Part shown: positions 4,620 through 45,907 of the stretch, piece after piece
Numbering within the stretch: the first letter of the stretch is position 1
How the letters are laid out: each line of letters begins with the position of its first letter
Source: Bdellovibrionota bacterium
Lineage (GTDB): Bacteria; Bdellovibrionota_C; UBA2361; OMII01
DNA length: 64,000 nt
Assembly (NCBI GenBank): GCA_044360075.1
Contig: JBIKLA010000004.1
Coordinates: 51,034 to 115,033, forward strand
Reading direction: 5' to 3'
Notes under the pieces: model-generated
Seen by the model: the letters and a program-made list of their open reading frames with translations, nothing else
Told to the model about the DNA's origin: nothing
The model's database searches: none
Program-made: the position numbers and the translations under genes

Positions 4620-7097
4620 CTACTTTTGGTCGATCTTGACCTCGATACGGCGGTTTTTCGCGAGCGCCTCAGTTGAGCCGCCCGAGTCGAGCGGCTGGTA
4701 CTCGCCGTAGCCGATCGCGGCAAGGCGGTGCGGGGGAATTCCCTGCTCAGTCAGGAACTTCACCACCGAGATCGCTCGAGCTGTCGAAAGCTCCCAGTTA
4801 GAGGGGAAGGCGGCGCTGCTGATCGGAAGCTTATCGGTGTGGCCCACGACGCTCAGAATCCAGTCAACATCCTTGGGGAATACCTTCTCCATCTCCTTTA
4901 AAGTTTCGGCGAACTTCATCAGCTCTTGCTTTCCGCCGTCCTGAAGGTCCGCCGATGCTGAGGCGAAAAAGACCTCGGACGCGAAGACAAAGCGGTCGCC
5001 AACGATGCGGATGTCCGGCCGGTTGCTCAGCACCTTCTTGAGCTTGCCGAAGAACTCCGAGCGATACTCTGCTAGCTCCTCTGCCTTCTTGATGAAGGCA
5101 AGGTTGAGCTTCTTGTTAAGGTCATCGATATTCTTGTCCTTCGCGAGACCTTTTGCCTTCTCCTTGTCGATATCAGCCATGAGGAGCCGCAGCTTCGCAT
5201 TGAGCTCGTCGACTTGCTCGCCGATAGCGAGCAGCTGGGCGCTGAGCTCCGCCTTTGACTTCTCGCTGCTTGAGAGCTTTTGCTCATTCGAGAGCAGGCT
5301 CGCGTCTATGCTTTTCTTCTCAGCGAGAAGGCGCTTGTTTTCCCTCTCCCTCTCAGCCAAGAGTACACGCAACGCCGCCAGTTCAGCGGCAAGCTCAAGC
5401 TTGCTTTTTTCGGCGTCTGAGAGCTTCTTCTCCTTCGCCGAGAGGCTGTCGTCGAGCTTTTTCTTTTCTTTGTCGAGCGATCCCGCCAACGCTTCCTTAA
5501 GCGCCAGTGCAGCCCTAAGGTCAGAAAGCTGGGTTGCCAGGTCCCGATTCTCCCTCTCAAGCGAGGCAAGCCTCTTCTCGTTGGCCGATAGGCTTGAGTC
5601 GAGCTTCTTGCGCTCTGAGCTGAGTGCACTCGACTCCTTCTCCTTATCCGCCAAGAGCGAGCGCAGCGCCGCGAGCTGCTTTTCCAGATCAACGTTTTCT
5701 TTTTCGACGATCTCCAGTTTAGCCTCCTTCGTGGCCAGGATGTCAGCGAGTTTCTTCTTGTCGCTGTCGAGAGACCCTGAGAGCTTCTCTTTCTCACTAA
5801 GCGCAAGGCGCAGGGCCGCAAGCTGGGCTGCCAGCTCAATCTTGTCATTCTCAAGATCAGAAAGCTTTTTCTCTTGGGCAGACAAGCTGGCATCGAGCTT
5901 CTTTTTTTCGCCGCCAAGCGAATCCGACACCTTCTCCTTTTCCGCTAGCGCAAGACGCAGCGCTGCCAGCTGTGCCGCAAGCTCAAGCTTGTCTCTATCA
6001 AGCTCAGCGAGCCTCTTCTCCCTTGCCGATAGACTGGCGTCGAGCTTCTTATTTTCTCCCCCAAGTGACTCGGACGCCTTCGCCTTCTCTGCAAGGGCGA
6101 GGCGGAGAGTCTCAAGCTGCGTTGCGAGGTCGAGCTTCTCCTTCTCAAGCTCGGAGAGCCTCTTCTCCTTTGCCGAAAGGCTTGTGTCGAGCTTCTTCTT
6201 TTCGCCCCCAAGCGCCTCAGAGACCTTCTCCTTCTCGGCCAGCACAGCCTTGAGCGCCGCAAGCTGTGCAGCCAGCTCCAAGGTTGCCTTCTCCTTCTCA
6301 GAGAGCTTCTTTTCGCTTGTCGAGAGGCTCTCAGCCAGCTTTTTCTTGTCTGCGTCGAGGGTCTTCGAGAGCGTTTCCTTTTGCAGGAGGGACGCCCTCA
6401 AGGCGGCTAGCTCCGCCGCAAGCTCACGCTGCGCTTTCTCGTTTTCAGAGAGCTTTTTCTCCCTGGCAGCAAGCTTCTCGCCGACCGATGTCTTTTCAGA
6501 TTCAAGGTTCATCGCGAACCTGGTCTTTGTTGATAGCAGCGCGTGCACCGCTCCAAGCTCCTTATCAAGCCGCTGCCTCTCCTTCTCAAGCTCCGAGAGC
6601 TTGGCCGTGGCCTGTGAGAGATCAGTGTCGAGGCGCTTGCGCTGAGCCTCTATGTCATCCAGAGCTCGCTCTTTCGCCCTGAGGGCCGTGCGGATTGAAA
6701 CGACCTCTTCATCGTTTTTCGCCATCTGTTCGGCGTTCTTGTGCATGAGCTCCTCAAGCTCGGCACTGCGGACCCGCGCTGCGTCTGCTGAAGACTTTTC
6801 GGAAGCAAGCGAGGTTGTGAGACTGCGGGCCTGTTGCTCAAACTCAGCTCCTTTTCTGCGGGCCTCCTCTGCCCCCTCTTTCTCGAGGGTAAGTGATGCC
6901 GAGAGCTGCTCAAGCTTCTGGCTCAATTCACCAAGCAAAATATCCTTGTCGTTGACGGCGCTCGACAGGTAGAACTGCGCCGCTACCATGACGAGAAGCA
7001 CGACCGCAATCATCATGAGCATCGACGACAGTGCGTCAACGTATCCTGGCCACACGTCGAAGTGTCGCCGCTTTCCACGCCGGGCTGCGTAGCTCAT
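4620..7097 (-). CDS. MotB/OmpA-family protein with a giant internal coiled-coil repeat region
   Basis: N-terminus DVWPGYVDALSSMLMMIAVVLLVM resembles the MotB plug/TM with an Asp at the TM entry. The C-terminus ...GHTDKLPISSAAFPSNWELSTARAISVVKFL...NRRIEVKI is an OmpA/MotB peptidoglycan-binding domain. About 430 aa of 49-aa heptad-like repeats lie in between. Confidence 0.8.
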   Translation of the reverse strand: MSYAARRGKRRHFDVWPGYVDALSSMLMMIAVVLLVMVAAQFYLSSAVNDKDILLGELSQKLEQLSASLTLEKEGAEEARRKGAEFEQQARSLTTSLASEKSSADAARVRSAELEELMHKNAEQMAKNDEEVVSIRTALRAKERALDDIEAQRKRLDTDLSQATAKLSELEKERQRLDKELGAVHALLSTKTRFAMNLESEKTSVGEKLAAREKKLSENEKAQRELAAELAALRASLLQKETLSKTLDADKKKLAESLSTSEKKLSEKEKATLELAAQLAALKAVLAEKEKVSEALGGEKKKLDTSLSAKEKRLSELEKEKLDLATQLETLRLALAEKAKASESLGGENKKLDASLSAREKRLAELDRDKLELAAQLAALRLALAEKEKVSDSLGGEKKKLDASLSAQEKKLSDLENDKIELAAQLAALRLALSEKEKLSGSLDSDKKKLADILATKEAKLEIVEKENVDLEKQLAALRSLLADKEKESSALSSERKKLDSSLSANEKRLASLERENRDLATQLSDLRAALALKEALAGSLDKEKKKLDDSLSAKEKKLSDAEKSKLELAAELAALRVLLAERERENKRLLAEKKSIDASLLSNEQKLSSSEKSKAELSAQLLAIGEQVDELNAKLRLLMADIDKEKAKGLAKDKNIDDLNKKLNLAFIKKAEELAEYRSEFFGKLKKVLSNRPDIRIVGDRFVFASEVFFASASADLQDGGKQELMKFAETLKEMEKVFPKDVDWILSVVGHTDKLPISSAAFPSNWELSTARAISVVKFLTEQGIPPHRLAAIGYGEYQPLDSGGSTEALAKNRRIEVKIDQK
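5180..6590 (-). repeat. about nine tandem 147-bp (49-aa) coding repeats inside the MotB-like gene
   Basis: Repeated protein unit LSAKEKRLSELEKEKLDLATQLETLRLALAEKAKASESLGGENKKLDAS with variants. Both-strand ORF shadows (Ser-rich + frame) are typical of such repeats. Confidence 0.7.
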
Positions 7098-16384: not shown

Positions 16385-17167
16385 TTAGGTGCCTGCCGGA
16401 GCCCTTGAGAAGAGGCTGGGAACGCCGGATATAGGCGAGCTTTCTGGGTCAGTGAAGGCTGGCTGCGGCGGCAGGACCCTGATGCCATGCACATAGTCAG
16501 CTTTAATCCTCCAGCCGCTCGTCGCGCAGGCGAGGGCGCTGCCGCCCATCAGGTCACGCCCGTCATTTGCACAGGTGTATGCCGCTAGCACGAGCGCCTG
16601 CTCAATAGCGGGAGCAGGCCGCATCCCCTTGTGGCTGAGGATCTCTTCCTGGGCCAGCCGAGACGCGCCGGTGGTGCCCCGTACCGCGATATCGATCTTA
16701 ATCTCGCGCGGCCGGGATTTCTCGCGCTCCCCTGCCCCACCGAACTTTGCGTACCACTCAAAATCCGGAGGAAATATTACGCCACGCGAGCTGAACCTGT
16801 GCGCAAAGTGCGCATTGAGCGCCCTCATCGCGTCGATGTCGCTGACCTCTGCCGGAATCGTAAGGTTCCACAATCGCGGCCTGAACAGCCCGGCGATGAA
16901 ACCCAGCGAATCCTGCCTGAGGGTCGAGAGTATGCGCTTGGCTGTGGCCAGTTGGCACTCGTCTGGCGGCAGGCTTCCAAGCAGCTCCTCATAGCCAGTC
17001 CCTTGCGTCTCAATCGAGCGATACCAACGCTCGGTGCCCACGAGCTCAACGGCGCGCGTGGCTGCTGCGAGCCGCTCCTGCGCAAGCTGAATCGCCTCCT
17101 GCAGCCGGGGGTCCTCGTCGGGCCGCTCGTGCGGCACGAGCGCCTCTTTTGGGGACAGATCCGTCAT
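16385..17167 (-). CDS. uncharacterised protein, paralog family P (copy 5, His of the AH motif replaced)
   Basis: LWNLTIPAEV...VIFPPDFEWY...ALVLAAYTCANDGRDLMGG aligns with P copies 1-4. Confidence 0.55.
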   Translation of the reverse strand: MTDLSPKEALVPHERPDEDPRLQEAIQLAQERLAAATRAVELVGTERWYRSIETQGTGYEELLGSLPPDECQLATAKRILSTLRQDSLGFIAGLFRPRLWNLTIPAEVSDIDAMRALNAHFAHRFSSRGVIFPPDFEWYAKFGGAGEREKSRPREIKIDIAVRGTTGASRLAQEEILSHKGMRPAPAIEQALVLAAYTCANDGRDLMGGSALACATSGWRIKADYVHGIRVLPPQPAFTDPESSPISGVPSLFSRAPAGT

Positions 17168-17276
17168 GAGGGATCGGTCGGCAGGAGCAGCCCCGGGCTT
17201 TATGATCTGGGGCGATTCTGGCCGGCTTTTGGGCAGAGTTAAGGCCGCGATTGCGCTCGAGAATACTTAAGCGCCC

Positions 17277-17760
17277 CTACCCCTGCCGCTTGAGCGCGCC
17301 AGCTGCATCGGCCCACCCCTCCGAAAGCTTCCACAGGCAGAAACTCAAGCCGCGGTGAAACTGAAGGAAATAGCTCGTCCCCGGGGCACGCACCGACTGC
17401 CCCTTCAGCACATCGGCCCCGTCGTGCGTGCATGCGGACGCCATGCACACCAGCGCCACTGCGGTCGTATCGGCCTGTCTCATGCCCCTCTGTGCCGCAG
17501 AAGCCAGCGCTGTACATCGTCCTGAACAAACATATTGGTCGCGTGCGGATGTCGCTCCCGAATTTTTGTGTCGAGCGCCACGAGTGCCTCAATATCCCCG
17601 ACACCTTCAGGGATCGTGAGGCGCCAGAACGGCTGCATGCGCAGGCGCGCGAAGAATCCGAGGCGCTCCTGCTCAAAGGAGCCCAAGATCTGGTCAGCGA
17701 TTATGAGATTGCGCTCCCCGCGCGGAAGCGCGCTGCGGCAGAGCCTCAAGAACGCTCTCC
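17277..17760 (-). pseudogene. frameshifted copy of paralog family P
   Basis: ORF 17480-17749 encodes LGFFARLRMQPFWRLTIPEGVGDIEAL (the middle region of the family). ORF 17277-17483, in another frame, encodes AVALVCMASACTHDGADVLKGQSVRAPG (the C-terminal core). Confidence 0.45.
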
Positions 17761-18042
17761 TCCCCCTCTAGACGGCGAATCCGGCGCTCGGCAGCCTCAA
17801 CATCGCCGCTGGCACACGCCGCCTGAAATCCGTCGTCAACCCGCACCAAGTCGTCGACCCGCACCAGGGGGTCTTGAAGCGATCGCTGGGCCTCGCTGGA
17901 CGCAGCACGTGCGGGAGAAGGTTCGGGCGAATCAAAGATCATAACAGCTTGCGGGCAGGTGTGCTGGATATGGGACGGCTGACCCATGCCTGTTGGCTGG
18001 GGTCGGCGCCGTTGCGACACCTCGCGATCCCTGCCTACGAGC

Positions 18043-18447
18043 CTACGCTGCGCGCGCGGCGTTTTCCGGCATCGTGCAGCGGCCAACGAACGATGCGCCA
18101 GGCTCGATGACGATGACTGGCGTCGAGATGTCCCCGCGCACCTGCGCCGAGCTCATGATTGAAAGCGACTTTGTCGCAGCTGAGTCGCCAACGACCGCTC
18201 CTTCAATCACGATCTCGGTCGCCGAAATACGGCCCTTAACGGTTCCACCGTTTGAGACCGTTACGCGCCCCTGGGAGGTGATTTCACCCTCTATAACGCC
18301 GGCCACCACGATGTCGCCTGTGGCGGCGACGTTTCCCGTGATGTGCGACTCGGTGCCAAGCACGGTTGTCCCTGCCCGCGGAGCCTCGTTGAGGGCGAAC
18401 TTGCCGGTCTTGCCGATCGAATCCGCCACGTTTGCTGCATTAGCCAT
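18043..18447 (-). CDS. bactofilin
   Basis: Repetitive beta-helical motif (GDIVVAGVIEGEITSQGRVTVSNGGTVKGRISATEIVIEGAVVGD) characteristic of the bactofilin DUF583 domain. Confidence 0.85.
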   Translation of the reverse strand: MANAANVADSIGKTGKFALNEAPRAGTTVLGTESHITGNVAATGDIVVAGVIEGEITSQGRVTVSNGGTVKGRISATEIVIEGAVVGDSAATKSLSIMSSAQVRGDISTPVIVIEPGASFVGRCTMPENAARAA

Positions 18448-18456
18448 ATCTCTCTC

Positions 18457-19413
18457 CTACTCCCGAGTTACACTCAAAATATCAACTAGGCGATCGAGCT
18501 CCGCATCTGAAAAGAAGTGAAGCTCAATCGATCCGCCGCGAGCACCGCGGTGTATCGAAACCTTCGTACCAAGCGAATTCCGAAGCCGCTCTTCAAGCTC
18601 AGGGTACTGTGGCGCGGTTTCGCGCCTGCCGCTCACGGGCGCCTTGCGCGGCGACTCAAGCACCACGTCGCGAGACACGATCGACTCTAGCGCGCGCACC
18701 GAGAGGCTCTCGGTGACGACCTTATTTGCAAGGCTGATCTGCGCCACCGGCTCCTTCACGGTCAGGATCGCCTTGGCATGCCCAACGGAGATGCGCCCCT
18801 CGCGCACCATCTCCTGCACAACCGGCGGCAGCCTCAGGATGCGCGCAAGGTTCGACACGGTCGCCCGGTCCTTTCCTACCCTATCAGCGACCTCTTGCGA
18901 TGTGAGCGCAAACTCATCCATGAGCCTCTGATATCCCTTTGCCTCTTCTATGGGGTTGAGATCTTGGCGCTGAACGTTCTCAACAATGGCAACCTCTAGG
19001 GTCTCCTTGTCACTCAATTCCCTAATAACAACAGGTACTTGCGCAAGTCCGGCGCGCAGCGCCGCCCTATAGCGGCGCTCACCTGCGATAATCTGGTACC
19101 CCTCCCCCTGCGAGCGCACAAGGATAGGCTGAAGAACGCCGAGTGCCTTAATTGACTCCGACAGCTCGCCGATCTCTGGATCAGAGAACTCAGTTCTGGG
19201 CTGATTGGGGTTCGGCATGAGCTGCGAAAGCGCCACGAAGGTTACCGAGGCACCCCTCGTCTCGACTAGAGAAACATCGTTTGAGTTTATGGGTTCCTGC
19301 TGAAGCCGCGTTTGAGGCGTTAATGGCACGACGGCCGCGGTTGATACCAGGGCGCTTAACCCCCTACCGAGACCCATCTTGGTCGGCTTCTTAAGTCCCT
19401 TGGCTCCTTCCAT
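18457..19413 (-). CDS. parB: chromosome partitioning protein ParB
   Basis: GERRYRAA ParB box and an HTH region. Adjacent to parA. Confidence 0.93.
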   Translation of the reverse strand: MEGAKGLKKPTKMGLGRGLSALVSTAAVVPLTPQTRLQQEPINSNDVSLVETRGASVTFVALSQLMPNPNQPRTEFSDPEIGELSESIKALGVLQPILVRSQGEGYQIIAGERRYRAALRAGLAQVPVVIRELSDKETLEVAIVENVQRQDLNPIEEAKGYQRLMDEFALTSQEVADRVGKDRATVSNLARILRLPPVVQEMVREGRISVGHAKAILTVKEPVAQISLANKVVTESLSVRALESIVSRDVVLESPRKAPVSGRRETAPQYPELEERLRNSLGTKVSIHRGARGGSIELHFFSDAELDRLVDILSVTRE

Positions 19414-19430
19414 CGAACTACCTCCAAAAG

Positions 19431-19446
19431 TGTTCCACGTGGAACA
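19431..19446. promoter_or_regulatory. parS-like palindrome TGTTCCACGTGGAACA (site 1, in parA-parB intergenic)
   Basis: Perfect 16-bp palindrome. It differs from the canonical parS TGTTTCACGTGAAACA at two symmetric positions. Confidence 0.7.
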
Positions 19447-19447
19447 G

Positions 19448-20242
19448 CTACGCCGCGCGCGCCGTTCCGCTCTTGTCTATACCCAACCTATCGATTAGCT
19501 CGCCAGCGAGCGCCAGGTAGCTCTTGGCTCCGGCGCTTTGCGGGTCGTATGTGCAAATAGGCATCCCATGACTGGGACACTCAGAGAGTCGGATATTTCT
19601 CGGGATCTTGGACTTGAATAGCCTTGCGGAGAAGTGCTTCTCGGCCTCCTCGTGAACCTGCACCGACAGCCGCGTGCGGCTGTCGTACATGGTGAGGAAA
19701 ACGCCAAGAAGCTCAAGCTTCGGATTAAAGGTCTGTTGCGTGAACGCAATGGTATTGAGAAGTCCGCTAAGCCCCTCAAGGGAGTAATACTCAGCCTGAA
19801 GCGGCACCAACACCGAATGGGCGGCCCCGAGGGCGTTGAGGGTGAGAAGGCCGGAGGAGGGCGGGCAATCGATGAGTACAAAATCATACCCCTCGGATAC
19901 CTCGCCTAAGGCGCTGCGAAGGATCAGTTCACGCCCAGGTGACTTTCCGATCTCAAGTTCCAGGCTGACGAGGTCTGCGGAGCCGGGAACAACATCGAGA
20001 CCCGGGATAGAGGAGGGCACTATGGTGCTTGCGAGCTGAATCCGTCCGAAGAAAACGTCGTAGAGGTCGGAACCCTCCGCGTGGCGCTCAATCCCCAGCC
20101 CGCTAGTCGCACTCGCCTGGGGGTCAAAATCTAGTAGAAGAACTTTAAATCCTAGAAGAGCGAGCTGCGCTGAGAGACTTACGGTGCTGGTTGTCTTTCC
20201 AACACCACCTTTTTGGTTCGCGAGGGCGATGATGTGCGCCAT
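19448..20242 (-). CDS. parA: chromosome partitioning ATPase ParA/Soj
   Basis: Deviant Walker A KGGVGKTT. ParA family. Confidence 0.93.
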   Translation of the reverse strand: MAHIIALANQKGGVGKTTSTVSLSAQLALLGFKVLLLDFDPQASATSGLGIERHAEGSDLYDVFFGRIQLASTIVPSSIPGLDVVPGSADLVSLELEIGKSPGRELILRSALGEVSEGYDFVLIDCPPSSGLLTLNALGAAHSVLVPLQAEYYSLEGLSGLLNTIAFTQQTFNPKLELLGVFLTMYDSRTRLSVQVHEEAEKHFSARLFKSKIPRNIRLSECPSHGMPICTYDPQSAGAKSYLALAGELIDRLGIDKSGTARAA

Positions 20243-20330
20243 AGATAGAACCCGTCACCTATCAAGCTTACGGAGGGGTAAGAGGTACCATGAGTCGGAA
20301 TCAACAACAATAAAAAAACGGCGGCGGATC

Positions 20331-20346
20331 TGTTCCACGTGGAACA
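20331..20346. promoter_or_regulatory. parS-like palindrome (site 2)
   Basis: Identical 16-mer TGTTCCACGTGGAACA upstream of parA. Confidence 0.7.
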
Positions 20347-20372
20347 TTTTTCAGGAGAGGGCGAGCTGAAGT

Positions 20373-20388
20373 GTTCCACGTGGAACAG
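20373..20388. promoter_or_regulatory. parS-like palindrome (site 3)
   Basis: Identical 16-mer, 26 bp from site 2. Confidence 0.7.
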
Positions 20389-20407
20389 CGGGCAGGGGTT
20401 TCAAAGG

Positions 20408-21745
20408 CTATTTTTCGCTCTGCGTGCGGCGTCGAACCTCACCAAAGCTCTCGACGAGAGCCTCAACCTCATGGGGGGCGTGCCCAACCGAAACGAGCAC
20501 TCTCAAAACCGCACCATTCTTCCGTATGCTTCGAGCCGTGAGCGCATCTACAAAGATTCCCCTCTGCAAAAGAGCCTCCTGCACAATACGAGCCTTCTGA
20601 AGGCTATCGAACCATACGCTTACGAAGGGAACCTCTCCACCTCCGATGACGCTCCACCCCTGACTCTTGAGCGCCGTCTCAACTATCCTCGCACGAGAGG
20701 CAAGCCTATCGCGCTGCGTAATCGCAACCTCAATGAGATCGAGTAAAGCCTCTGCGGCTGACACGGCCGGTGCCGACGGAGGTGGCTCAACCCTAAGGTA
20801 GCGCGAGCGCCTAAGGAGCAACTCCTTGAATTCACTAGCTATAATAACTGCCGAGATTTCAAGCCCCGAGAGTGGCGCAAAGCTTACGAGGCGGGCTACG
20901 AGGCTGGAAGACTTCGGCATCACCTCTGCCGAGCCGGCGCCTCGCAGGCCAACAGCCCCGAGTGCTGCTGTTTCATCCGCTATGACCCACGCACCTGCCT
21001 GCTCGAGCATCGCCCAGGTGTGAGGCGCGAGCACCACCTCGGCCGTGAGCGAAGAGACGCTTTCAACTACGACGAGAACACGCTTGGCGAGCTGAAACCG
21101 CTCTAAAAGGGCTCGCAGCGTTTCTGCGCTTTCAAACTCATGAAACTCCGCCCCGACGAGCGCACACGCATCAGCAACGGGCAGCGGCGAGAGGGATCCA
21201 CCCAAAACAATCCAGCCCTCCGAACACAGCGCCGTTATGCAGGTGAGCGCCGCTTGGCTGCGGGAAGAGAACAGCAGCGCCGATTCCGCCGCAAAGAACT
21301 GGGCCATGCGTTGCTCGGCCTTTGCGTGTGCCGCTGTGAGTGCGCCCGAGAAACGACCCAACCCGCTCGCGACACCGAATTGCTCAAGCGCAGCAACAAC
21401 AGCCGCCGAAATCTCTCGCCGCGAGAGCACATCAAGCAGGTCCCAAGAGGCGAAGCTTGTAATGACACGCCCGCGGTAATGAGGATGAAACGCATCTGCG
21501 CCGGCTCGCAGACCGATATCAGGGGAGGGGATAGCGATCTCAAGAGCCAGCTCCCGCAGTAGTTCAGCTTTAATATCTGGCTTCACGGCGATTTTTCGTT
21601 TGTTTTTGGTAACGGGCGTTGCACGGCTTCTCCAGCGCCATGGTGGAGGGTTTTTTAGAGTGTTGCAACCTCGATCTGGCCTTGGCCGGTACGCGCACTG
21701 CGATCTTAAAGTTGCTGTGTGGTGTGCGGAGATTAGCGATTCCAT
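20408..21745 (-). CDS. class II aminotransferase-fold protein (AONS/KBL-like) lacking the PLP-binding Lys and the DDAH His: probable pseudoenzyme
   Basis: Aligns to 8-amino-7-oxononanoate synthase (SWDLLDVLS similar to SNDYLGL; ALLFSS; ADETAALG in place of DDAHG; SFAPLSG in place of SKALG). The true start is uncertain. Confidence 0.6.
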   Translation of the reverse strand: MESLISAHHTATLRSQCAYRPRPDRGCNTLKNPPPWRWRSRATPVTKNKRKIAVKPDIKAELLRELALEIAIPSPDIGLRAGADAFHPHYRGRVITSFASWDLLDVLSRREISAAVVAALEQFGVASGLGRFSGALTAAHAKAEQRMAQFFAAESALLFSSRSQAALTCITALCSEGWIVLGGSLSPLPVADACALVGAEFHEFESAETLRALLERFQLAKRVLVVVESVSSLTAEVVLAPHTWAMLEQAGAWVIADETAALGAVGLRGAGSAEVMPKSSSLVARLVSFAPLSGLEISAVIIASEFKELLLRRSRYLRVEPPPSAPAVSAAEALLDLIEVAITQRDRLASRARIVETALKSQGWSVIGGGEVPFVSVWFDSLQKARIVQEALLQRGIFVDALTARSIRKNGAVLRVLVSVGHAPHEVEALVESFGEVRRRTQSEK

Positions 21746-22020
21746 GCCCGCTCTATCCCAGTGCGCTGCGCATGCGCGAGCTCACGCGCACGATGCCCTG
21801 CTGTCGAATGGATTCACATTGAGACGTCTGCTGCCGCAATCACGCGAAAGGATTTGCGAACCCGATACGACGGGTAGCCGACGTCGCGGTCCCAATCGAC
21901 AACTATTCCTATCGGTGGCATCGAACGACCCGACAAGCCATTTCAAATCGACGTTTTGCTAGCCATCGTGCCCCGCACCCCTGTGTTGCAACCCCGCATC
22001 TAACCGGGGAGGTAATACCT

Positions 22021-22428
22021 ATGAAAAACACCGTCCTCCACATCGCTGCGCTCGCAGGGGCCATCCTTAGCTTCGCTTCGCCCGCGCTAGGGCAAGCTCA
22101 CTTCTATCCCGGTGGAGGTGGTGCCGGCGGCTATCCTGGCGCCGAGCCAATCGTCGTGCTGCCGTATGCTAACGGTGGCGGAAGCAACAGCGCCATCCAG
22201 GCTCCCGGCGCCCCAGTGGTTGGGGGCGGCCAAGGCCAGGCGGGACAGGTTCCAGCGGGCCCTAACGTCATCGAGCAGCAGGAGGACCTCGCCGAGCAGC
22301 AAGCGCCCAGCATGATCTTGAGCGATCCTGATGATAGCGCCCTCGCGCAGCCGCCGATGGACGATCCTCAGGATGCCTCGGGCTTTGAGGGGCTGCAGGC
22401 GATCGACAACGTCGACTCCTCATACTAG
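22021..22428 (+). CDS. secreted Gly/Pro/Gln-rich small protein
   Basis: Good RBS (GGAGG) and a signal peptide MKNTVLHIAALAGAILSFASPALGQA. Confidence 0.5.
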   Translation: MKNTVLHIAALAGAILSFASPALGQAHFYPGGGGAGGYPGAEPIVVLPYANGGGSNSAIQAPGAPVVGGGQGQAGQVPAGPNVIEQQEDLAEQQAPSMILSDPDDSALAQPPMDDPQDASGFEGLQAIDNVDSSY

Positions 22429-22590: not shown

Positions 22591-23229
22591 ATGAAGAAAC
22601 TCTCAGCTATCGCCCTCTCCCTGCTCTGCGCAGGATGCTCGGCAACCCCGTACACTGGTGAGACCATCACCGAGACAACAACCCCGAAGGGGCTTAACGT
22701 CATCCAGACCTCAGCTCGCACGAAGCTCCCGAACGGAGTCCTTGCAGGCGAGGAAAGCGAGCTTCAGGAGATCACTGCAACCGTTGAGTCGATCAGCGCA
22801 AAGACCGGCATGGTCAAGCTTCAGACCCCGGACGGCCGTATCGTTGATCTCAAGGCCGACCCGAAGGCTCCAAACTTCAAGAACGTGAAGAAGGGCGATA
22901 AGCTCGTTCTTGACGTCTATGAGGCCGTCGACTTCGAGGTTCGCAAGCCAACCCAAGAGGAGCTCGCTATGCAGGGCGTTGATGTTGACGTTGCCGCAAT
23001 TGCAGACAAGGGACAGAAGCCGGCTGCTGTTCTCGCATCGACTCGCGTAGACATTCTCACGATCGACAAGATCGACACCAAGAAGGAGACCCTCACGCTC
23101 TCCAACGCGGGAAGCGTCGTAACCGTCAAGGCGAAGTACCCTGAGAACCTCAAGGTTCTCAAGGTTGGCGACACGGTTGTCGTAAAGACCTCAGAGCTGG
23201 TCGCTGCCCGCATCAAGCAGGTAGGGTAG
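22591..23229 (+). CDS. lipoprotein with two tandem beta-rich repeats
   Basis: Lipobox LLCAGCS. Internal duplication (KLVLDVYEAVDFEV and KVGDTVVVKTSELV segments). Confidence 0.65.
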   Translation: MKKLSAIALSLLCAGCSATPYTGETITETTTPKGLNVIQTSARTKLPNGVLAGEESELQEITATVESISAKTGMVKLQTPDGRIVDLKADPKAPNFKNVKKGDKLVLDVYEAVDFEVRKPTQEELAMQGVDVDVAAIADKGQKPAAVLASTRVDILTIDKIDTKKETLTLSNAGSVVTVKAKYPENLKVLKVGDTVVVKTSELVAARIKQVG

Positions 23230-23271
23230 TTCCCAAGCCGCTGCGCTGCTTAGCGTAGCGCTTTGGATGGG

Positions 23272-23307
23272 CCCCGTGGAGACGTGTCGTCTCTGCGGGG
23301 CTTTTTA
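23272..23307 (+). terminator. Rho-independent terminator
   Basis: 13-bp stem (with two G-U pairs), 3-nt loop, then CTTTTTATTT. Confidence 0.6.
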
Positions 23308-23325: not shown

Positions 23326-24436
23326 CTACTCACTCATGAGCAAGCAGGACTCAATAATCGGATCGAGCTTCCCGTCGAGCACAGCGTGAACGTCTGAGGT
23401 CTCATAGTTGCTTCGCAGGTCCTTCACCATCTGGTAAGGCTGCATCACGTAGTTTCGTATCTGGCTTCCAAAATCGATTTTCTTGCGCTGCCCCTTAAGC
23501 GCATCCATCTTGTCGCGCTGCTGCTCTTGCTGAAGCTCATACAGCTTTGACTTGAGAATCTTCATCGCCCGTGACTTGTTTTTGTGTTGCGACCGCTCGC
23601 TCTGGCACGCAACGACGATGCCACTCGGGATGTGCGTGAGGCGGACAGCCGAGTCGGTCTTGTTGACGTGCTGGCCACCAGCTCCCGACGATCGGTACGT
23701 GTCTACACGGAGGTCGGCCTCATTCACCTCAACTTCGATCTCCTCCTCGATGTCAGGCGTGACGCTGACCGAGGCAAACGAGGTGTGGCGCCGAGCATTT
23801 GAGTCAAAGGGCGAAATGCGCACGAGGCGATGGACCCCGGACTCATTGCGCAGGTGCCCGTACGCGTAGGGCCCCTCGACAAGAACAGTGGCGTTCTTGA
23901 TGCCGGCGCCCTCGCCCGGTTGATAATCCAGGATCTCTGTCGAAAAGCGCTTGTTTTCTGCCCACCGGAGGTACATCCGAAGAAGCATATCGGCCCAATC
24001 CTGGGCCTCCGTTCCACCAGAGCCGGCGTTGATCTCGATAATGGCGTGCTGGCTGTCGAACTCGCAGTTCATCTTGCACTTAAACTCGAGGGCGCCAACG
24101 GCCGCAAGAAGGTCGATAATGGCGCGTTGCGCCTCCTCGACCATCTCCTCGTCGTTTGATTCCTTGATCAGCTCCAAGGCGGCTTCTGCGTCGGCGCGGA
24201 GGCTCTCAAGCTTTTTAAACTGGTCGAGGCGCTCAACGCTCTGCGCGCGCTCGCGCATGATGGCCTTGGCTTTACTTGCGTTGTTCCAGATGTCCCCTGC
24301 TTGAGACTGCTGCTCGAGCTCTTCTACTTTCCTGGTAAGGGTAGGGATGTCAAAGAAACCCCCTCAGGGTCTCAACGCGCTCGCTAAGTCCCTGGAGCTT
24401 GTACTTAAATTCAGATGGCTCAAACACGGTGGGCAT
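23326..24436 (-). CDS. prfB: peptide chain release factor 2 (programmed +1 frameshift gene; frames do not join perfectly in this sequence)
   Basis: Main ORF 23326-24258 is RF2 (GGQ motif; SPF in place of the canonical SPF/SPY tripeptide-anticodon region). The upstream ATG at 24436 encodes MPTVFEPSEFKYKLQGLSERVETLRG..., similar to the E. coli leader ...LTERSDVLRGYL. Confidence 0.85.
24346..24363 (-). promoter_or_regulatory. RF2 autoregulatory frameshift site (SD-like GAGGGGGG + CTT TGA C)
   Basis: The minus strand reads ...CTGAGGGGGGTTTCTTTGACATCC.... The UGA at 24349-24351 is in the RF2 main frame. Confidence 0.7.
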
Positions 24437-39600: not shown

Positions 39601-40614
39601 ATGACCGACCTTGATATCCGAGACGCTGCCGCCCTCGACAGAGCGATGGGTGACTTCCAATCGTCGTTTGCCAAGATAGAACAAGAGGTCGCTAAGTCAA
39701 TCGTCGGCATGCACGACATAGTACGCGGAGTAGTTTCATCCGTTTGTGCTCGGGGGCACGTGCTCCTTGAGGGTGTTCCTGGCTTGGGGAAAACGCTCCT
39801 AGTGAAATCTATCGCCCAGACGCTCGGCCTCTCGTTTAAGCGCGTGCAGTTTACTCCAGACCTCATGCCCTCCGATGTAACGGGCACCCAGGTCCTTACT
39901 GATGACGCCAGCGGACAGCGGCGGTTTGTGTTCCGGCAGGGCCCCATCTTCGCCAACATCGTGCTCGCTGACGAGATCAACCGCGCCACGCCAAAAACTC
40001 AAAGCTCCCTTCTTGAGGCGATGGAGGAGCGCCAGGTGACAGTACTCGACCAGACCTATCCGCTCCCGCAGCCGTTTTTTGTCCTCGCCACGCAGAACCC
40101 CATAGAGAACGAGGGCACGTATCCCTTGCCCGAAGCGCAGCTCGATCGATTTCTCATGAAGCTCGTGGTCCCGGCACCCTCGGCCAAAGAGCTCAAGGAG
40201 ATCCTCACGCGAACTACCGGCACTTCATCGAGCGAGCTGCGTCCGGTGTTCCCACCCGACGAGGCGGGCGCATACATCGCGTCGATGCAGCGTATCGTCC
40301 GGCACGTCGTTGTGTCCGACCCGATGCACGAGGTCATCGTTCGGCTCATCTCGGCGCTCACACCCTCATCAGAGTTCGCAACGCCGAAGGTCAAGAAGTA
40401 TGCACGCTTTGGCCCAGGCCCGCGCGGGGCGCAGTCACTCGTCCTCGCCGCTAAGGTAAGCGCTCTTCTTGACCGCCGCATCAACCTCTCGTTTGAGGAC
40501 ATCAGGGGCGCCATTAAGCAGACGCTTCGCCACCGGCTAATCTTAAACTTCCAAGCTGAGGCCGACGGCGTAACCACCGATGACCTCATCGAGGAGGTTC
40601 GAAACGCAAAGTAG
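39601..40614 (+). CDS. MoxR-like AAA+ ATPase
   Basis: LLEGVPGLGKT Walker A and MoxR family features. Confidence 0.9.
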   Translation: MTDLDIRDAAALDRAMGDFQSSFAKIEQEVAKSIVGMHDIVRGVVSSVCARGHVLLEGVPGLGKTLLVKSIAQTLGLSFKRVQFTPDLMPSDVTGTQVLTDDASGQRRFVFRQGPIFANIVLADEINRATPKTQSSLLEAMEERQVTVLDQTYPLPQPFFVLATQNPIENEGTYPLPEAQLDRFLMKLVVPAPSAKELKEILTRTTGTSSSELRPVFPPDEAGAYIASMQRIVRHVVVSDPMHEVIVRLISALTPSSEFATPKVKKYARFGPGPRGAQSLVLAAKVSALLDRRINLSFEDIRGAIKQTLRHRLILNFQAEADGVTTDDLIEEVRNAK

Positions 40615-40623
40615 TCCCTGCCT

Positions 40624-41520
40624 ATGCAGCTCTCGCCTGAAACCCTCCGTCTCTTAAGCGCATTCGCGCTCCGGACGAGGCGCTCCTTCTTCGGCATCCG
40701 ACAGGGCTCGCACCGCTCTCAGCGGCGCGGGCACGGCATGGAGTTCGCAGAGTTTCGAAACTACGAGCTTGGCGACAATCCGCGCTACATCGACTGGAAC
40801 CTCTTCGCCCGCAGCGACAAGCTGCTCGTCAAGCGCTACCTTGAGGAGGAGAACGTCGCACTCTACATAGTTATCGACGGCTCTCGGTCGATGACGCATC
40901 CTTCGCTTCGAGAGAAATGGGACCTCGCCTCCCACATCGCGGCGTTCGCATCGTTCATCGGGCTCGCCAACAAGGACCCTGTCACCATCTCTGTTCTTGG
41001 CGGCCCGCACAGCCCCCGTTTCTGGAGCGGCAAGGCCTTTGGGCCCCTCACCTCATTCCTTTCCGAGGCCACGACGATGCTCGTTACGCCCGAGGCGCAG
41101 TCATTAAACCTGCCTGAGGAGGCTCGGCGCGCCGCAACGCGCGTCACCTTCCCGGGCATCTGCCTTATCCTGTCTGACTTCCTCTATCCGCTCGAACAGG
41201 TCATCTCGGTTCTCGGGGCATTTCGCGCCCGCAACATGGAAGTCCACGCCGTGCAGGTGCTCGGTAAAACAGACCAGTCTCTCGGCGGCGACCTTCGTTC
41301 AAGCGGGATTACGATTGCTGACAGCGAAACCGGCGAGGTGCGCGGCCTCTCGCTCGACACAGAGTCCCGGGCCACATACGCCGAGCTTCTCAACGAGCAC
41401 ACCGAAAAGATCCGGGAACACTGCCGCGCGCACCGCGTGCAGTTCACCTCAGTCGTTGCCGACGGGGCCCCGGCCGATGCCGGCATCAGCGCCCTCACCC
41501 AGATGGGGCTGTTCGTATGA
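40624..41520 (+). CDS. DUF58 family protein (MoxR-associated)
   Basis: DUF58 signature region ELGDNPRYIDWNLFARSDKLLVKRY. Confidence 0.85.
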   Translation: MQLSPETLRLLSAFALRTRRSFFGIRQGSHRSQRRGHGMEFAEFRNYELGDNPRYIDWNLFARSDKLLVKRYLEEENVALYIVIDGSRSMTHPSLREKWDLASHIAAFASFIGLANKDPVTISVLGGPHSPRFWSGKAFGPLTSFLSEATTMLVTPEAQSLNLPEEARRAATRVTFPGICLILSDFLYPLEQVISVLGAFRARNMEVHAVQVLGKTDQSLGGDLRSSGITIADSETGEVRGLSLDTESRATYAELLNEHTEKIREHCRAHRVQFTSVVADGAPADAGISALTQMGLFV

Positions 41521-43355
41521 CGATTTTTGGCTACGCCTTCAGCGCTCTCGCACCGTGGCTCCTTCTTGGCGCCCCTCTGGGAGCCGCTATCCTCGTGTGG
41601 GCCTACCGGTACCGGGGCACCGCGAACGAGGTGGTCATTTCAACCTTTCTCCTCGTGCGGCGGCTGCCTGAGTTGATGACCGCGCGAAAACGGTTCTCTC
41701 CTCCGCCCCAATTCTGGCTTGAGCTCGCCATCGTCGCGCTGCTATCGCTAGCCGCCGCAGGGATTTCCGCAATGCAGGCAGGCGAGAAAATCGCGATTGT
41801 CCTCGACTCCTCGCTCAGCATGCTGGCCAAGGAGCCCTCTGGCGGTACGCGCTTTGAGTCGGCTGCCCGAATAGCCAGCGCTGATGCTGCCCAGCGCGTT
41901 GCACGCTCTCGGTTCACTGTATTTACTGCCGCGGCATCACTTCAGCGCGCATCGGAGAGCGGCATCTCCGGCCCAGCGGCGGCGCTTGCGATCCGAGGCC
42001 TTAAGCCGACACTCTCGCCAGATCGCCTCGACAGCGCCATCTACTCCCTCCTCAACGATGGATCATATGACTCCGTCTGGGTGTACACCGACAAGGCCGC
42101 TCCGGAAGGGCTCATGAGTCTCGCAAAGCTCAAGGTCACGTCTATCCCCACAGACACCGGAGCGACCCGAAACGCTTGGATTCGGTCCGTGTCCTCCCTC
42201 CCCGCGGGAGCGCTCTCCGTCGACATCGGAGTGGTGGGGCCAGCTCCTGCCACTGCGCGCCTCACAGCCGACTGCTTCGACTCGAGCGGTGTCCCTGTTC
42301 GGGAGCATTCCGGCAAGACTATCCAGCTCTCTCCGGCCTCACCGACTACGGTCCAGCTTGGGCCCATTCGCGAGCCGTGGAGCTATTGCAGCGTGTCGGT
42401 GCAGGGCCTGTCTGCAGGCGAAGAGTCCTTGCTCGTCGATAACGAGGCGTGGGTCACCTCGGATTCTGCTGGCTCCACGATTCGAGTTGTGAGCCCGCTC
42501 ACTCCTGACGAGCTTGGATTACCACGCATCCAGGGATATTCCTTCGAGCGCATCTCTCCTGAGGCGTTGCCCTCCCTAAGCGCCGGCGCAGCGGTGATCT
42601 TTCATCGCACAGCTCCTCCGCCTGAGCTCACGGCATCCTCGCTCGTCGTCATGCCCCCAACAGGCCCCCTCGGGTTATCAGGCTCGGTGGGGATCGAGGC
42701 TTCCGGCACAGCGAGCGTCACGCGCTGGAGCAGCTCGCACCCTCTTCTTCAGTACCTAAACCCAACCCTGCTCTCGATCAGCCGGGTGAGGCCCCTTCGA
42801 TGTCCCGAGCTCTCGCAGCAGATCTTGTCATCCTCAGCGGGAGATCTCGTGTGTGCCGGTGAGGACCGGTCCGGGAGGCTTGTCGTCACCGGCTTTGAGA
42901 TCTTCCCCTTCGACGGGCTCTTGTCGCCGACCGTGAGCATCTTTACGCTCAATGCGCTCAAGTGGATCGCTCAAGTGCCGTCGACTGCCAGCGGCGCCGT
43001 TGGACCAGCGACGCTACCAGAGGGGGCCACCAACGTGCGCTACCTCGCCCCCAGTGCTCCACCTCCTGAGCAGCAAGGCGACTCAACCTTCGACATCTCG
43101 ACCCCGGGCATCATCGCTTTTTCGCCACAAGGAGGGCCTGAGCCGCAAATTCGAGCCTTTAACATCTTCTCGGATGAAGAATCCAACCTTTCAGACACCG
43201 AGTCGCTCTCCGTTTCTCTCGCATCGGTTGAGCCACAAGCGCGCGCTCGGGCGCCGTTCGCATGCGCCCCGTGGTTTGCGCTCATCGCCTGGCTGCTTCT
43301 GGCGATCGACATCGCACGACGAGCCATCCGCGCTTCGGCATGGGGGGCCCGATGA
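41517..43355 (+). CDS. BatA-like membrane protein with vWA domain
   Basis: N-terminal double-TM BatA-type domain, then a MIDAS motif (VLDSSLSM). Start overlaps the DUF58 stop. Confidence 0.75.
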   Translation: MTIFGYAFSALAPWLLLGAPLGAAILVWAYRYRGTANEVVISTFLLVRRLPELMTARKRFSPPPQFWLELAIVALLSLAAAGISAMQAGEKIAIVLDSSLSMLAKEPSGGTRFESAARIASADAAQRVARSRFTVFTAAASLQRASESGISGPAAALAIRGLKPTLSPDRLDSAIYSLLNDGSYDSVWVYTDKAAPEGLMSLAKLKVTSIPTDTGATRNAWIRSVSSLPAGALSVDIGVVGPAPATARLTADCFDSSGVPVREHSGKTIQLSPASPTTVQLGPIREPWSYCSVSVQGLSAGEESLLVDNEAWVTSDSAGSTIRVVSPLTPDELGLPRIQGYSFERISPEALPSLSAGAAVIFHRTAPPPELTASSLVVMPPTGPLGLSGSVGIEASGTASVTRWSSSHPLLQYLNPTLLSISRVRPLRCPELSQQILSSSAGDLVCAGEDRSGRLVVTGFEIFPFDGLLSPTVSIFTLNALKWIAQVPSTASGAVGPATLPEGATNVRYLAPSAPPPEQQGDSTFDISTPGIIAFSPQGGPEPQIRAFNIFSDEESNLSDTESLSVSLASVEPQARARAPFACAPWFALIAWLLLAIDIARRAIRASAWGAR

Positions 43356-45907
43356 GCTTTGCGATTCCCCAGCTCCTTGCCCTCATCCCGCTTTCGCTCA
43401 TCGCCTTAGTGCTCACACTGCGAACCAAGAGGAACCGTTCCGGGAAGCCGATCTTGCTGGCCCTGCTGCGGGCAGGAACTCTCTCGGCGCTTTCCTGCGC
43501 CCTTGCGCAGCCCTTCTTGTCGAGACAGCAGCCCTCGCGAAGCCTGCCGGTTCTTGTCGACATCTCCTCAAGCGTCGCGGTGGCCCAGGGAGACGCGCTG
43601 TTGCAGGGCGCTGAGTCGATTTCCTCGGCTCTTGGCGTTCCGCTGACCCTCTTCCCGTTTAGCCGCTTCGTCTCCGCCTCTGGCACCTCCGCTGGTGCCC
43701 CATTTGCTACTGTGCGGCGCGGCTCAGAGAAGCTCGATACCGGGGCGTCAGACCTGGGTGCTGCCCTCAGGGAGGCATCTTCGCTTTCCTCGCCCGTGGT
43801 GCTGCTTCTCTCGGACGGATATGAGACCACCGGCAGCGCAGTTTCTGCCCTGTCATCAGCCGGCCAGCCGAAGATTTTTCCCCTCACGGCTGCCGGCGAG
43901 TCCCCCCAGAACGCCCTTTCGATCTCCCAGCTCTACGTGCCGCTTACCGTTAAGGCGAAGAAGGCGGCAGAGGTTCGAGCGACGGTAACAAGCGGCTCCA
44001 CGGAGCCGCACGACGCCGAGCTCGTCGTCAAGCACGGAGAGGGTGTTGTGCTCTCAAAGCAGCTACGGGTCCCGCCTGGCGAAGACGTGCTCGTGACAGC
44101 ACAGACAAACCCAGCGCTTGAGGGCCTCAACATTGTCACAGCCACGCTCTCGTGGCGTGATGCCGATGGACCTCATTCGGTCACCAAAACGAGCTGGCTC
44201 AGCAGCGAACGACGCAGCCGGGTGCTACTTCTATCCGGGACGCTCGATGATGAGCGCTACCTAACCCAGATCCTCAAGAGCCAGGCGTACGAGCTAGAGG
44301 CTCGCGTGGCTCAGGGCGCGGTTGCCTCGAGCGAACCGCCGTCGCAATTTCGGGCCGTGATTCTCAACAATGTGCCGGCTTCGGCGCTTCCGCGCAGCTT
44401 CGTCGACGCTCTCCCCAAGTACGTTCGGGACGGCGGGGGCCTCATCATGGTAGGCGGCAATAGAAGCTTTGGCCTCGGCGGCTACATCGGATCCCCGATC
44501 GAGGACATCCTGCCAGTTACCCTCGTTCCGCCCCACACCGAAAAGAAGCGCCTCAATGTCGCCGTCCAGCTCGTCATCGACAAGTCCCGCAGCATGGCCG
44601 AGGACTCGCGCCTTGAGTTCGCAAAGGCTGCCGCGCGAGAAGTCGTCGACTCACTGAAGGACGACGACTTCGTCGGTGTCATCGGCTTCGAGGAGGTCGC
44701 CTTCATCGCTCTCCCCATGTCGCGCGTCGGGGATGTTCGGGGCACCGCCTCAGATCGCATCAGCCGGCTCTTTCCCACAAACCGAACCAACCTCTATCCC
44801 GCGCTTGAGGAGGGCCGACGGGGACTGTCGCGGGTAAGTGCCGGCAGGAAGCACCTCATCGTGCTCACGGATGGGCAGATCCCTGACCAGGGCCCATTTT
44901 ACTTTAACCTCATCCACCAGATGCGACTCCTGGGCATCACGGTTTCGACGGTACTTGTCGGCACAGACGCACCAGACGCATTCCTCGTGGAGATTGCGAA
45001 CCAAGGCGGGGGATCCTTCTACCAGACCAACGATCCCCGCAACCTGCCGCGCATCTTTCTCTCCGACATCAAGGTGGCCTCGGGCGAGCGCACGCTGAAA
45101 GAGGAGCCCCAGATCCCGGTCCTGCTTGGACCCGACGGTGTGCGATCGACCCGCATCGACAGCTTTCCTCCGCTGCGCGGCTTCGTCGAGACGCTCTCGC
45201 GGCGCGGTGCGGCAACAGAGCTCCTCGTTTCCGAGGAGGACAAGCGCTATCCGCTTCTTGCCTCATGGAAGGTGGGCGGGGGGCGAGCAATCGCGTTCAC
45301 TTCAGACGCCAACGGCCGGTGGTCGGCGCCGTGGCTTCGGTGGCACGGCATTGAGGAATTTTGGTCCGACCTCGTCGAATCGGCGCAACCAAGCACGCTT
45401 GAGAAGCCGCTCTCAACCCAATTCGACCTGCGCACGTGGGTAGAAGGCAGCGATCTCGTCATCGATCTCTCGCTCTTTGAGGAGCCGCGCGTCAGCTCAG
45501 TAGCCGCCACCGTCGTTCTTCCCTCCGGAGAGTCGCGAGACCTCCCGTTCTCTCCCAAGCAGAGGGGACACTACCAGGCGCGCCTCGCGGGAGCTGCGGC
45601 GGGTACCTACCGAGCAACCGTGTCGCTGGGCAGCCAGAAGCTTCCCGAGGTTGCGTGGACTCTCTCTGGCGAGCTCTTCGGAGAGCAGCAGCACCGCACC
45701 CCTAACCTTGAGCTGCTGCAGGCGATCGCCAACCGAACAGGAGGCAAGATAAACCCGACTCCTGATGACATTCGGCCGCTCATGACCCAGGTGCTTGAGA
45801 GGCGCGAGGTGGCACACCTCTTCCTCATGGCAGCCCTGCTGCTCTTTCTACTTGAGCTGCTGCTGCGCGAGGCCTCCCGCCGGGCGCTCCGGCCCGCAGG
45901 GGCGTAG
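43352..45907 (+). CDS. BatB-like membrane protein with vWA domain
   Basis: N-terminal TM (MSFAIPQLLALIPLSL...) and a vWA MIDAS motif (LVIDKSRSM...LTDG). ATGA overlap with the upstream gene. Confidence 0.75.
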   Translation: MSFAIPQLLALIPLSLIALVLTLRTKRNRSGKPILLALLRAGTLSALSCALAQPFLSRQQPSRSLPVLVDISSSVAVAQGDALLQGAESISSALGVPLTLFPFSRFVSASGTSAGAPFATVRRGSEKLDTGASDLGAALREASSLSSPVVLLLSDGYETTGSAVSALSSAGQPKIFPLTAAGESPQNALSISQLYVPLTVKAKKAAEVRATVTSGSTEPHDAELVVKHGEGVVLSKQLRVPPGEDVLVTAQTNPALEGLNIVTATLSWRDADGPHSVTKTSWLSSERRSRVLLLSGTLDDERYLTQILKSQAYELEARVAQGAVASSEPPSQFRAVILNNVPASALPRSFVDALPKYVRDGGGLIMVGGNRSFGLGGYIGSPIEDILPVTLVPPHTEKKRLNVAVQLVIDKSRSMAEDSRLEFAKAAAREVVDSLKDDDFVGVIGFEEVAFIALPMSRVGDVRGTASDRISRLFPTNRTNLYPALEEGRRGLSRVSAGRKHLIVLTDGQIPDQGPFYFNLIHQMRLLGITVSTVLVGTDAPDAFLVEIANQGGGSFYQTNDPRNLPRIFLSDIKVASGERTLKEEPQIPVLLGPDGVRSTRIDSFPPLRGFVETLSRRGAATELLVSEEDKRYPLLASWKVGGGRAIAFTSDANGRWSAPWLRWHGIEEFWSDLVESAQPSTLEKPLSTQFDLRTWVEGSDLVIDLSLFEEPRVSSVAATVVLPSGESRDLPFSPKQRGHYQARLAGAAAGTYRATVSLGSQKLPEVAWTLSGELFGEQQHRTPNLELLQAIANRTGGKINPTPDDIRPLMTQVLERREVAHLFLMAALLLFLLELLLREASRRALRPAGA

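Follow-up and report, generated by a model that had tools for sequence, protein, structure and literature searches.

A predicted ParABS locus in an uncultured Bdellovibrionota-related bacterium, with a parS site in the parA-parB spacer and a lysine-less alpha-oxoamine-synthase-fold neighbour

Introduction

In Bdellovibrio bacteriovorus, the genes bd3906 (parA3), bd3905 (parB) and bd3904 (bactofilin) are co-transcribed, as established by reverse transcription PCR (PMC7186360). The parS of this bacterium is the 16-mer TGTTCCACGTGGAACA; it is bound by purified ParB, whose accumulation on closed DNA depends on cytidine triphosphate (CTP), and neither in vitro nor in Escherichia coli did this ParB accumulate on TGTTTCACGTGAAACA, the parS of Caulobacter (PMC10547168). 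Here, we analyzed a stretch of 64,000 nucleotides (64 kb, hereafter the window) from an uncultured Bdellovibrionota-related bacterium (assembly GCA_044360075.1, contig JBIKLA010000004.1, positions 51,034 to 115,033), in which a gene for an apparently inactivated enzyme is followed by parA, parB and a bactofilin gene. Judging from sequence and gene order, the region is a putative chromosomal partition (ParABS) locus, orthologous in layout to bd3906-bd3904. We have good confidence in the reading developed below, in which parA, parB and the bactofilin gene would form one unit and the upstream pseudoenzyme would most likely stand outside the partition machine.

Layout and parS sequence both liken the locus to that of B. 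bacteriovorus HD100. The 16-mer is identical, parS lies upstream of parA in both, the gene order parA-parB-bactofilin is common to the two, and so is the lineage at the level of the phylum. However, both parS sites of HD100 have been described upstream of the operon, whereas the window locus has a third one in the parA-parB spacer. The upstream neighbours also differ, being rsmG and bd3907 in HD100 and a lysine-less gene of the alpha-oxoamine-synthase (AOS) fold, ancestrally prfB, in the window. Unlike in HD100, the bactofilin gene is followed by the atp operon in the window lineage.

Other described systems share some of these characteristics. The parS consensus of Myxococcus xanthus, TGTTCCACGTGGAACG, differs from TGTTCCACGTGGAACA by one terminal base and is bound by ParB in electrophoretic mobility shift assays (PMC3899335). 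The bactofilin gene bacM lies directly downstream of parAB in this species, as in the window locus, but the role of BacM is in cell shape; the bactofilins that organize ParABS, BacNOP, act as a scaffold with the adapter PadC, and their genes are located elsewhere (PMC5703909). M. xanthus also has 22 parS sites, against three in the window locus. The perfect palindrome TGTTCCACGTGGAACA is found again as parS2/parS3 of Pseudomonas aeruginosa (PMC4368675) and as parS of P. putida (PMC4368675, PMC7022226), but these are Gammaproteobacteria with no bactofilin gene after parB and another layout of sites relative to parAB. For the pseudoenzyme, the nearest parallel is LCB1/SPTLC1, a subunit of eukaryotic serine palmitoyltransferase (SPT) that has likewise lost its Schiff-base lysine and is nevertheless conserved; the similarity is detectable by sequence. 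The window protein is bacterial, however, and forms its own clade nearest to bacterial SPT/Kbl/BioF; a role in an LCB1-like heterodimer is conjecture.

Gene content and parS sites

The AOS-like open reading frame (ORF), parA, parB and the bactofilin gene are all encoded on the minus strand, in that order, with a gap of 165 bp between the first gene and parA and a parA-parB spacer of 34 bp (19414-19447). The features of the locus are the following.

20408..21586, minus strand: lysine-less AOS-fold pseudoenzyme, 392 aa; GTG start at 21586, in a frame open up to an ATG at 21745
20372..20387, palindrome: predicted parS distal to parA, exact TGTTCCACGTGGAACA, 16 nt past the stop of the AOS-like gene
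20331..20346, palindrome: predicted parS proximal to parA, exact TGTTCCACGTGGAACA, 88 nt before the parA ATG and about 20 nt before the promoter-like motif
20282..20310, minus strand: sigma-70-like promoter candidate for parA, TTGTTG (20310-20305), 14 nt, TGg, TACCTC (20287-20282)
19448..20242, minus strand: parA, 264 aa, Soj/ParA-type ATPase; Pfam AAA_31 191.6 bits, CbiA 90.5 bits
19431..19446, palindrome: predicted spacer parS, exact TGTTCCACGTGGAACA, 1 nt past the parA stop and 17 nt before the parB ATG
18457..19413, minus strand: parB, 318 aa; Pfam ParB_N 111.9, HTH_ParB 124 and ParB_C 36.7 bits
18043..18447, minus strand: bactofilin gene, 134 aa; PF04519 86.1 bits over residues 28-124

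By their domains and motifs, the par genes are of the standard type, and the domain matches of ParA, ParB and the bactofilin exceed curated cutoffs by a wide margin. ParA carries the deviant Walker A motif KGGVGKT (NQKGGVGKTT at residues 9-18, which fits the pattern KGGxGK[ST]), and its identity across orthologous loci is 76-95%. ParB has the N-terminal ParA-activating peptide (LGRGLSAL), the CTP-binding box (GERRYRAA), the helix-turn-helix and the C-terminal dimerization domain. It scored 181 bits against TIGR00180, above the cutoff of 58.45, and 223.7 bits against the Noc model, below the cutoff of 315. The closest solved structure was Spo0J of Thermus thermophilus (1vz0, E 1.9e-58), followed by other ParB-family chains.

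Exactly three copies of TGTTCCACGTGGAACA are present in the window, all at parA, and no other site with up to three mismatches to either TGTTCCACGTGGAACA or TGTTTCACGTGAAACA was found in the 64 kb. Dinucleotide-preserving shuffles gave an expectation of 0.00 sites at up to two mismatches and of 0.14 at up to three. The initial annotation had described these three identical palindromes as non-canonical parS sites bracketing the cluster. The palindromes are real, and their exact sequence and position around parA identify them as the predicted parS of a chromosomal ParABS system, but the term non-canonical is unwarranted because the 16-mer is identical to a parS that experiments have validated in B. 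bacteriovorus, P. aeruginosa and P. putida. There is no parS after parB or after the bactofilin gene in the window, and the sites therefore flank parA, lying upstream of it and in the parA-parB spacer, and do not bracket the cluster. The placement of one site within the 34-bp spacer was confirmed, and this site lies just ahead of the GGAGG ribosome-binding site of parB. The two upstream sites were correctly recognized too, but they are separated by 25 nt from edge to edge (41 nt from start to start) and not by 26 bp.

Related loci were then compared with the window. They comprised 18 genome contigs found through relatives of the pseudoenzyme, all from metagenome-assembled genomes (MAGs) of uncultured Bdellovibrionota, “Bdellovibrionales” or “delta proteobacterium”, and eight more obtained by exact-protein look-ups (all designated here by L numbers). 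A genome-wide count of the 16-mer and its mismatch variants had been proposed as a check; made on the window and on about 300 kb of these relatives, it revealed no scattered copies. In the related loci, every copy of the motif lay either upstream of parA or between parA and parB, with the exception of one in L023. The region between the pseudoenzyme gene and parA contains 1 to 11 parS sites in orthologous loci, and the proximal parS forms an invariant block in an alignment of five orthologous intergenic regions. A spacer parS is present in every related locus that has both parA and parB and in which the variant is recognizable, and is a hallmark of the uncultured lineage. The positions beside parA are kept while the flanking sequence diverges.

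The core of the 16-mer, CACGTG, is a common one, and a scan marked its hairpin, after which a T-run follows, as terminator-like, as would fit a generic dispersed palindromic repeat or the operator of another protein. This explanation was rejected on copy counts and positional conservation, and its probability is negligible: there are just three copies in the window and none away from the par genes in the relatives, the sites next to parA are conserved amid diverging flanks, and the sequence is that of a validated parS. Since the motif is confined to the surroundings of parA throughout the relatives, its interpretation as the centromere of a chromosomal ParABS system, with predicted ParB binding, is secure. 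The comparison of ParB binding to variant and canonical sites that had been suggested is already published for B. bacteriovorus, of the same phylum (PMC10547168); for the window protein, binding is a prediction.

The copy in L023 (7038-7053), a distant relative, lies within the 3' coding end of the pseudoenzyme gene, and L022 carries 11 exact copies of TGTTCCACGTGGAACA (5347-6170), spaced by 55-132 bp, in a gap of about 1 kb between the pseudoenzyme gene and parA.

Conservation in related genomes

Mapping of the window proteins onto the related loci revealed a recurrent block, seen in about 20 of them from Bdellovibrionota and SAR324 genomes, consisting of phoH, (HD), ybeY, prfB, the pseudoenzyme gene, 1 to 11 parS, parA, one parS, parB, the bactofilin gene and atpF'/F/H/A/G. 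This block is retained in divergent loci, in which the pseudoenzyme has about 30% identity and the GC content is 39-55% (one of them SAR324-labelled); these loci carry the CC/GG parS variant at both usual positions. The adjacency of the pseudoenzyme gene and parA was observed in 17 distinct related loci and the window, down to about 30% identity, and in L026 it occurs without prfB nearby.

In 21 of the 24 loci whose upstream side is informative, the gene immediately before the pseudoenzyme gene is prfB, in the same orientation. In most relatives the two genes abut or overlap. They overlap by 4 nt in L019 and L020 and by 17 nt in L023, and the other gaps range from a few bp to about 620 bp. In five loci (L011, L012, L014, L017 and L021), the order is prfB, pseudoenzyme gene and cysE (serine acetyltransferase), and neither parAB nor parS occurs in the 5.6-7 kb that follow. 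In L011, mnmG (gidA) was found about 4 kb from the pseudoenzyme gene, beyond cysE.

Bactofilin gene and transcription

As initially annotated, a bactofilin gene directly follows parB, starting 9 nt past its stop codon. The product has the central DUF583 beta-helical domain between short tails that defines a bactofilin, and its solved relatives are BacA (2n3d, E 9e-11) and TtBac (6ria, E 6e-10). The gene follows parB in every related locus with enough sequence. A link to the ParABS scaffold of Myxococcus had been implied for it. However, the syntenic gene in M. xanthus encodes BacM and not the scaffold proteins, and a tblastn search of the window revealed no PadC-like second ParB-like sequence. 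The bactofilin may serve either as a scaffold for ParAB or in cell shape.

Between the proximal parS and parA lies a conserved motif of the form TTGTTc-N14-TGaTACCTCT, whose distance to the parA ATG is the same in the window as in nine related loci (L001-L005, L007, L009, L010 and L019). It resembles an extended -10 promoter and is thus a candidate promoter of parA. On this basis, from the gaps of just 34 bp and 9 bp and by analogy with B. bacteriovorus, parA, parB and the bactofilin gene would constitute one transcription unit with its own promoter-like element.

The lysine-less AOS-fold protein

The GTG at 21586 was taken as the start of the pseudoenzyme gene because homologues begin at the aligned position. 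The alternative ATG at 21745, which would give a protein of 445 aa, was rejected, as the 53-aa extension is not conserved; nearly all homologues measure 388-400 aa, typically 392-397 aa, although gene callers are divided between the 392- and 445-aa versions inside one 90% cluster. A database search with the protein gave 73 clusters at E <= 4e-47, followed by a drop to true BioF/Kbl at about 1e-21. Against TIGR00858 (bioF), it scored 127.6 bits for a cutoff of 426.45, and it was also far below the cutoffs of the sister equivalogs. The AlphaFold2 model (mean predicted local distance difference test score, pLDDT, 87.1) matched Kbl, SPT, BioF and ALAS in Foldseek with template modelling (TM) scores of 0.83-0.88 and a probability of 1.00. 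The protein is thus predicted to adopt the AOS fold, i.e., fold type I of enzymes dependent on pyridoxal 5'-phosphate (PLP).

Residues of the active site were examined using the E. coli BioF numbering. The Schiff-base Lys236 is replaced by Pro in the window protein and is not Lys in any of 74 close members. The PLP-stacking His133 and the O3'-binding His207 are likewise lost in all 74; the former is replaced by S, T, A, P or Q and the latter by A, S, T, V, F or Y (mostly A), whereas each is His in 19 of 19 Lys-bearing relatives. By contrast, Asp204 is invariant in the 74 close members and the substrate-carboxylate Arg is retained in 72 of them. No conserved lysine column exists anywhere in the family alignment. 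Relocation of the catalytic lysine was considered and rejected: among the close members, P0066 alone carries a Lys within four columns, and a single distant representative (P0215) has one at the column itself. These replacements bear out the initial description of an inactivated aminotransferase-fold protein encoded before parA on the same strand, and indicate that the protein should be unable to form the PLP internal aldimine.

The loss extends well beyond the close members. When 1.84 billion representatives were searched with a family profile, about 125 of the top 150 matches were lysine-less, with His133 to Q, His207 to F/Y and Lys236 to L/F/Y/R as typical replacements, and Lys-bearing enzymes appeared only from about 175 bits down. 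The wider lysine-less clade (P0129-P0239, L023-L026) includes more than 100 representatives at 50% identity, among them sequences from SAR324-labelled MAGs, and nearly all of these have a residue other than Lys at position 236.

The ratio of nonsynonymous to synonymous substitution rates (dN/dS) of the pseudoenzyme gene was 0.06-0.15, similar to that of parB in the same pairs, and it was 0.07 in the subclade unlinked from parAB. Together with the deep conservation, these values led us to reject a decaying pseudogene. Positions of the former pocket carry new residues conserved in the family (SWD, NQA, DES-ALG and RSR). A conserved, remodelled pocket with Asp204 and the Arg kept favours ligand binding or a role as partner subunit over PLP catalysis, and the protein is perhaps a ligand-binding protein or a non-catalytic partner.

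Enzymes of the AOS family work as obligate dimers, and their active sites lie where the subunits meet. The window protein could be the non-catalytic partner of an active AOS encoded elsewhere, in the manner of LCB1/SPTLC1 with LCB2/SPTLC2, and have nothing to do with segregation. Its full-length AOS fold, its detectable sequence similarity to the Lys-less LCB1/SPTLC1 chains 7yjm_A and 6m4n_A and the retention of Asp204 and of the substrate-carboxylate Arg agree with such a function. However, an active AOS paralogue was found neither in the window nor in any related locus obtained, and the family-specific conserved residues line the protein's own former pocket and not that of a partner. We consider this explanation rather unlikely.

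Public databases name members of the family 8-amino-7-oxononanoate synthase or PLP-dependent aminotransferase, labels that cannot be right for a family without the Schiff-base lysine. An AOS pseudoenzyme beside parA was not found in the searchable literature, where the family appears to be undescribed.

Relationship of the pseudoenzyme to partition

The initial annotation had grouped the pseudoenzyme gene with parA, parB and the bactofilin gene in a putative four-gene operon. In such an operon, the dead AOS-fold protein could be a lineage-specific accessory of the centromere or of partition, for example a metabolite sensor controlling ParB loading or ParA activity. The genes share the same orientation with no strong terminator before parA, and the adjacency spans 17 loci and the window, about 30% identity and a GC content of 39-60%. 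The gene also always lies within the expected ParB spreading zone (in L023, a parS is even inside its 3' end), and a lineage-specific factor that acts on DNA beside parS has been postulated for B. bacteriovorus (PMC10547168). However, adjacency alone is weak evidence, because the conserved block, from ybeY and prfB through the par genes to atp, strings together housekeeping genes of unrelated functions. The steadiest neighbour of the pseudoenzyme gene is prfB and not parA: when parAB is absent, as in the five loci mentioned above, the gene stays with prfB under equal purifying selection. Moreover, a conserved promoter-like motif belongs to parA alone, the equivalent position in B. bacteriovorus is occupied by rsmG and an “unknown protein”, and no family member from a cultured organism was seen in the searches made.

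A four-gene operon with a partition accessory is therefore improbable in our view, and involvement of the pseudoenzyme in partition of any kind is equally doubtful. Transcription as two units appears likelier from the sequence than a single operon including the pseudoenzyme gene. We favour the view that the protein is a long-standing syntenic neighbour, coupled ancestrally to prfB, which most likely takes no part in the partition machinery.

Several points weigh against our overall interpretation. The persistence of the pseudoenzyme-parA adjacency down to about 30% identity, in SAR324 and Bdellovibrionota MAGs and without prfB nearby in L026, fits a functional link. The -10 hexamer of the promoter-like motif (TACCTC) is weak, and a scan for consensus promoters and terminators gave no more hits in the window than in shuffles and did not call the conserved parA motif. 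The scan showed no convincing intrinsic terminator between the pseudoenzyme gene and parA, so read-through from one to the other is possible. No DnaA or DnaN domain was matched among the window ORFs scanned (no search for oriC was made), which leaves proximity to the origin unsupported. Finally, the sequences and comparisons themselves show the components of the system, the gene order, the confinement of parS to this locus and, for the pseudoenzyme, the residue losses and purifying selection; binding by ParB, the grouping into transcripts and what the bactofilin and the pseudoenzyme do are inferred for this locus, from established ParABS biology and from B. bacteriovorus.

Genomic surroundings

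Upstream of the locus, prfB (release factor 2; 23326-24436, minus strand) contains a 310-aa PCRF/RF-1 ORF and a classical programmed +1 frameshift. The shift site (about 24350-24363) follows the ATG at 24436 and 28 codons, reads AGG GGG TTT CTT TGA C and leads into the +1 frame down to 23326; because of this frameshift, ORF lists show only the downstream part of the gene. Between prfB and the pseudoenzyme gene, and divergent from the latter, lie two small plus-strand genes (22021-22428 and 22591-23229). The first encodes a Gly/Pro/Gln-rich product of 135 aa with a signal peptide-like N-terminus and the second a lipoprotein-like product of 212 aa. This two-gene insertion was found only in the window and its subclade (L001-L003, L016 and L018), and is followed by a terminator-like bidirectional hairpin with a 16-bp stem (23269-23303). 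As a consequence of the inserted genes and the hairpin, the pseudoenzyme gene of the window would no longer be coupled to prfB, and its transcription must start within 21587-22020. The resulting transcript possibly reads through into parA.

Two copies of GTGTTGCAACC(T/C)CG (21660-21673 and 21983-21996) lie upstream of the pseudoenzyme gene, in the intergenic region that it shares with its divergent neighbour. This repeat, which includes the palindrome GTTGCAAC, is absent from the rest of the window. It was rejected as a conserved element, as it is not kept in relatives, and may be a local operator or have arisen by chance.

On the other side, about 1.5 kb (16495-18042) separate the bactofilin gene from the atp operon, a distance of just 10-335 bp in close relatives. 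For an ORF of 260 aa in this interval (16385-17167, minus strand), neither a family match nor a homologue in the related loci was found. A degraded paralogous stretch with a broken frame (17391-17731) lies there too, as does an imperfect inverted repeat of 26 nt (17608-17633 / 18008-18033). Farther away, at 39601-47599, genes for a MoxR-type AAA_3 ATPase and then for large proteins with VWA domains form a BatA/MoxR-VWA-like cluster unrelated to the par locus. Along the window, the GC skew shows no switch, and Rfam and tRNA scans of the window gave no matches.

Discussion

By analogy with established ParABS systems, CTP-bound ParB dimers would load at the three TGTTCCACGTGGAACA sites, close as clamps and slide over the neighbouring few kb, a range that would take in both par genes, the bactofilin gene and the 3' portion of the pseudoenzyme gene. 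Nucleoid-bound ParA-ATP would then move the partition complex, and the bactofilin would be a polymer-forming protein co-expressed with ParAB. Because the promoter-like element lies just downstream of the proximal parS, at about 20 nt, ParB bound at this site may tune its own operon. ParB at the spacer site, ahead of the parB ribosome-binding site, may likewise tune operon expression or the ParA:ParB ratio.

For the parS variant, the specificity of ParB for it and the parA-parB-bactofilin operon, there are published precedents in B. bacteriovorus, M. xanthus and Pseudomonas. The small additions that are new here are the spacer parS and the lysine-less BioF-like family. With its position directly ahead of the ribosome-binding site of parB, the spacer parS could have a part in setting the amounts of ParA and ParB independently although their genes share an operon, an uncoupling observed in Bdellovibrio and so far unexplained.

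If the lysine-less AOS-fold protein were a dedicated centromere or partition factor of the SAR324/Bdellovibrionota, which we regard as a long shot, its remodelled pocket would possibly link a metabolic signal to ParB or ParA, and such an accessory protein could even be of the kind postulated to keep ParB off the surroundings of parS in Bdellovibrio cells that are not replicating. Under the preferred reading of a syntenic neighbour outside the partition machine, the family is of modest value as a large, strongly conserved group of bacterial pseudoenzymes with a remodelled, conserved pocket. Biotin-pathway reconstructions of these MAGs that rely on BioF labels would be wrong.

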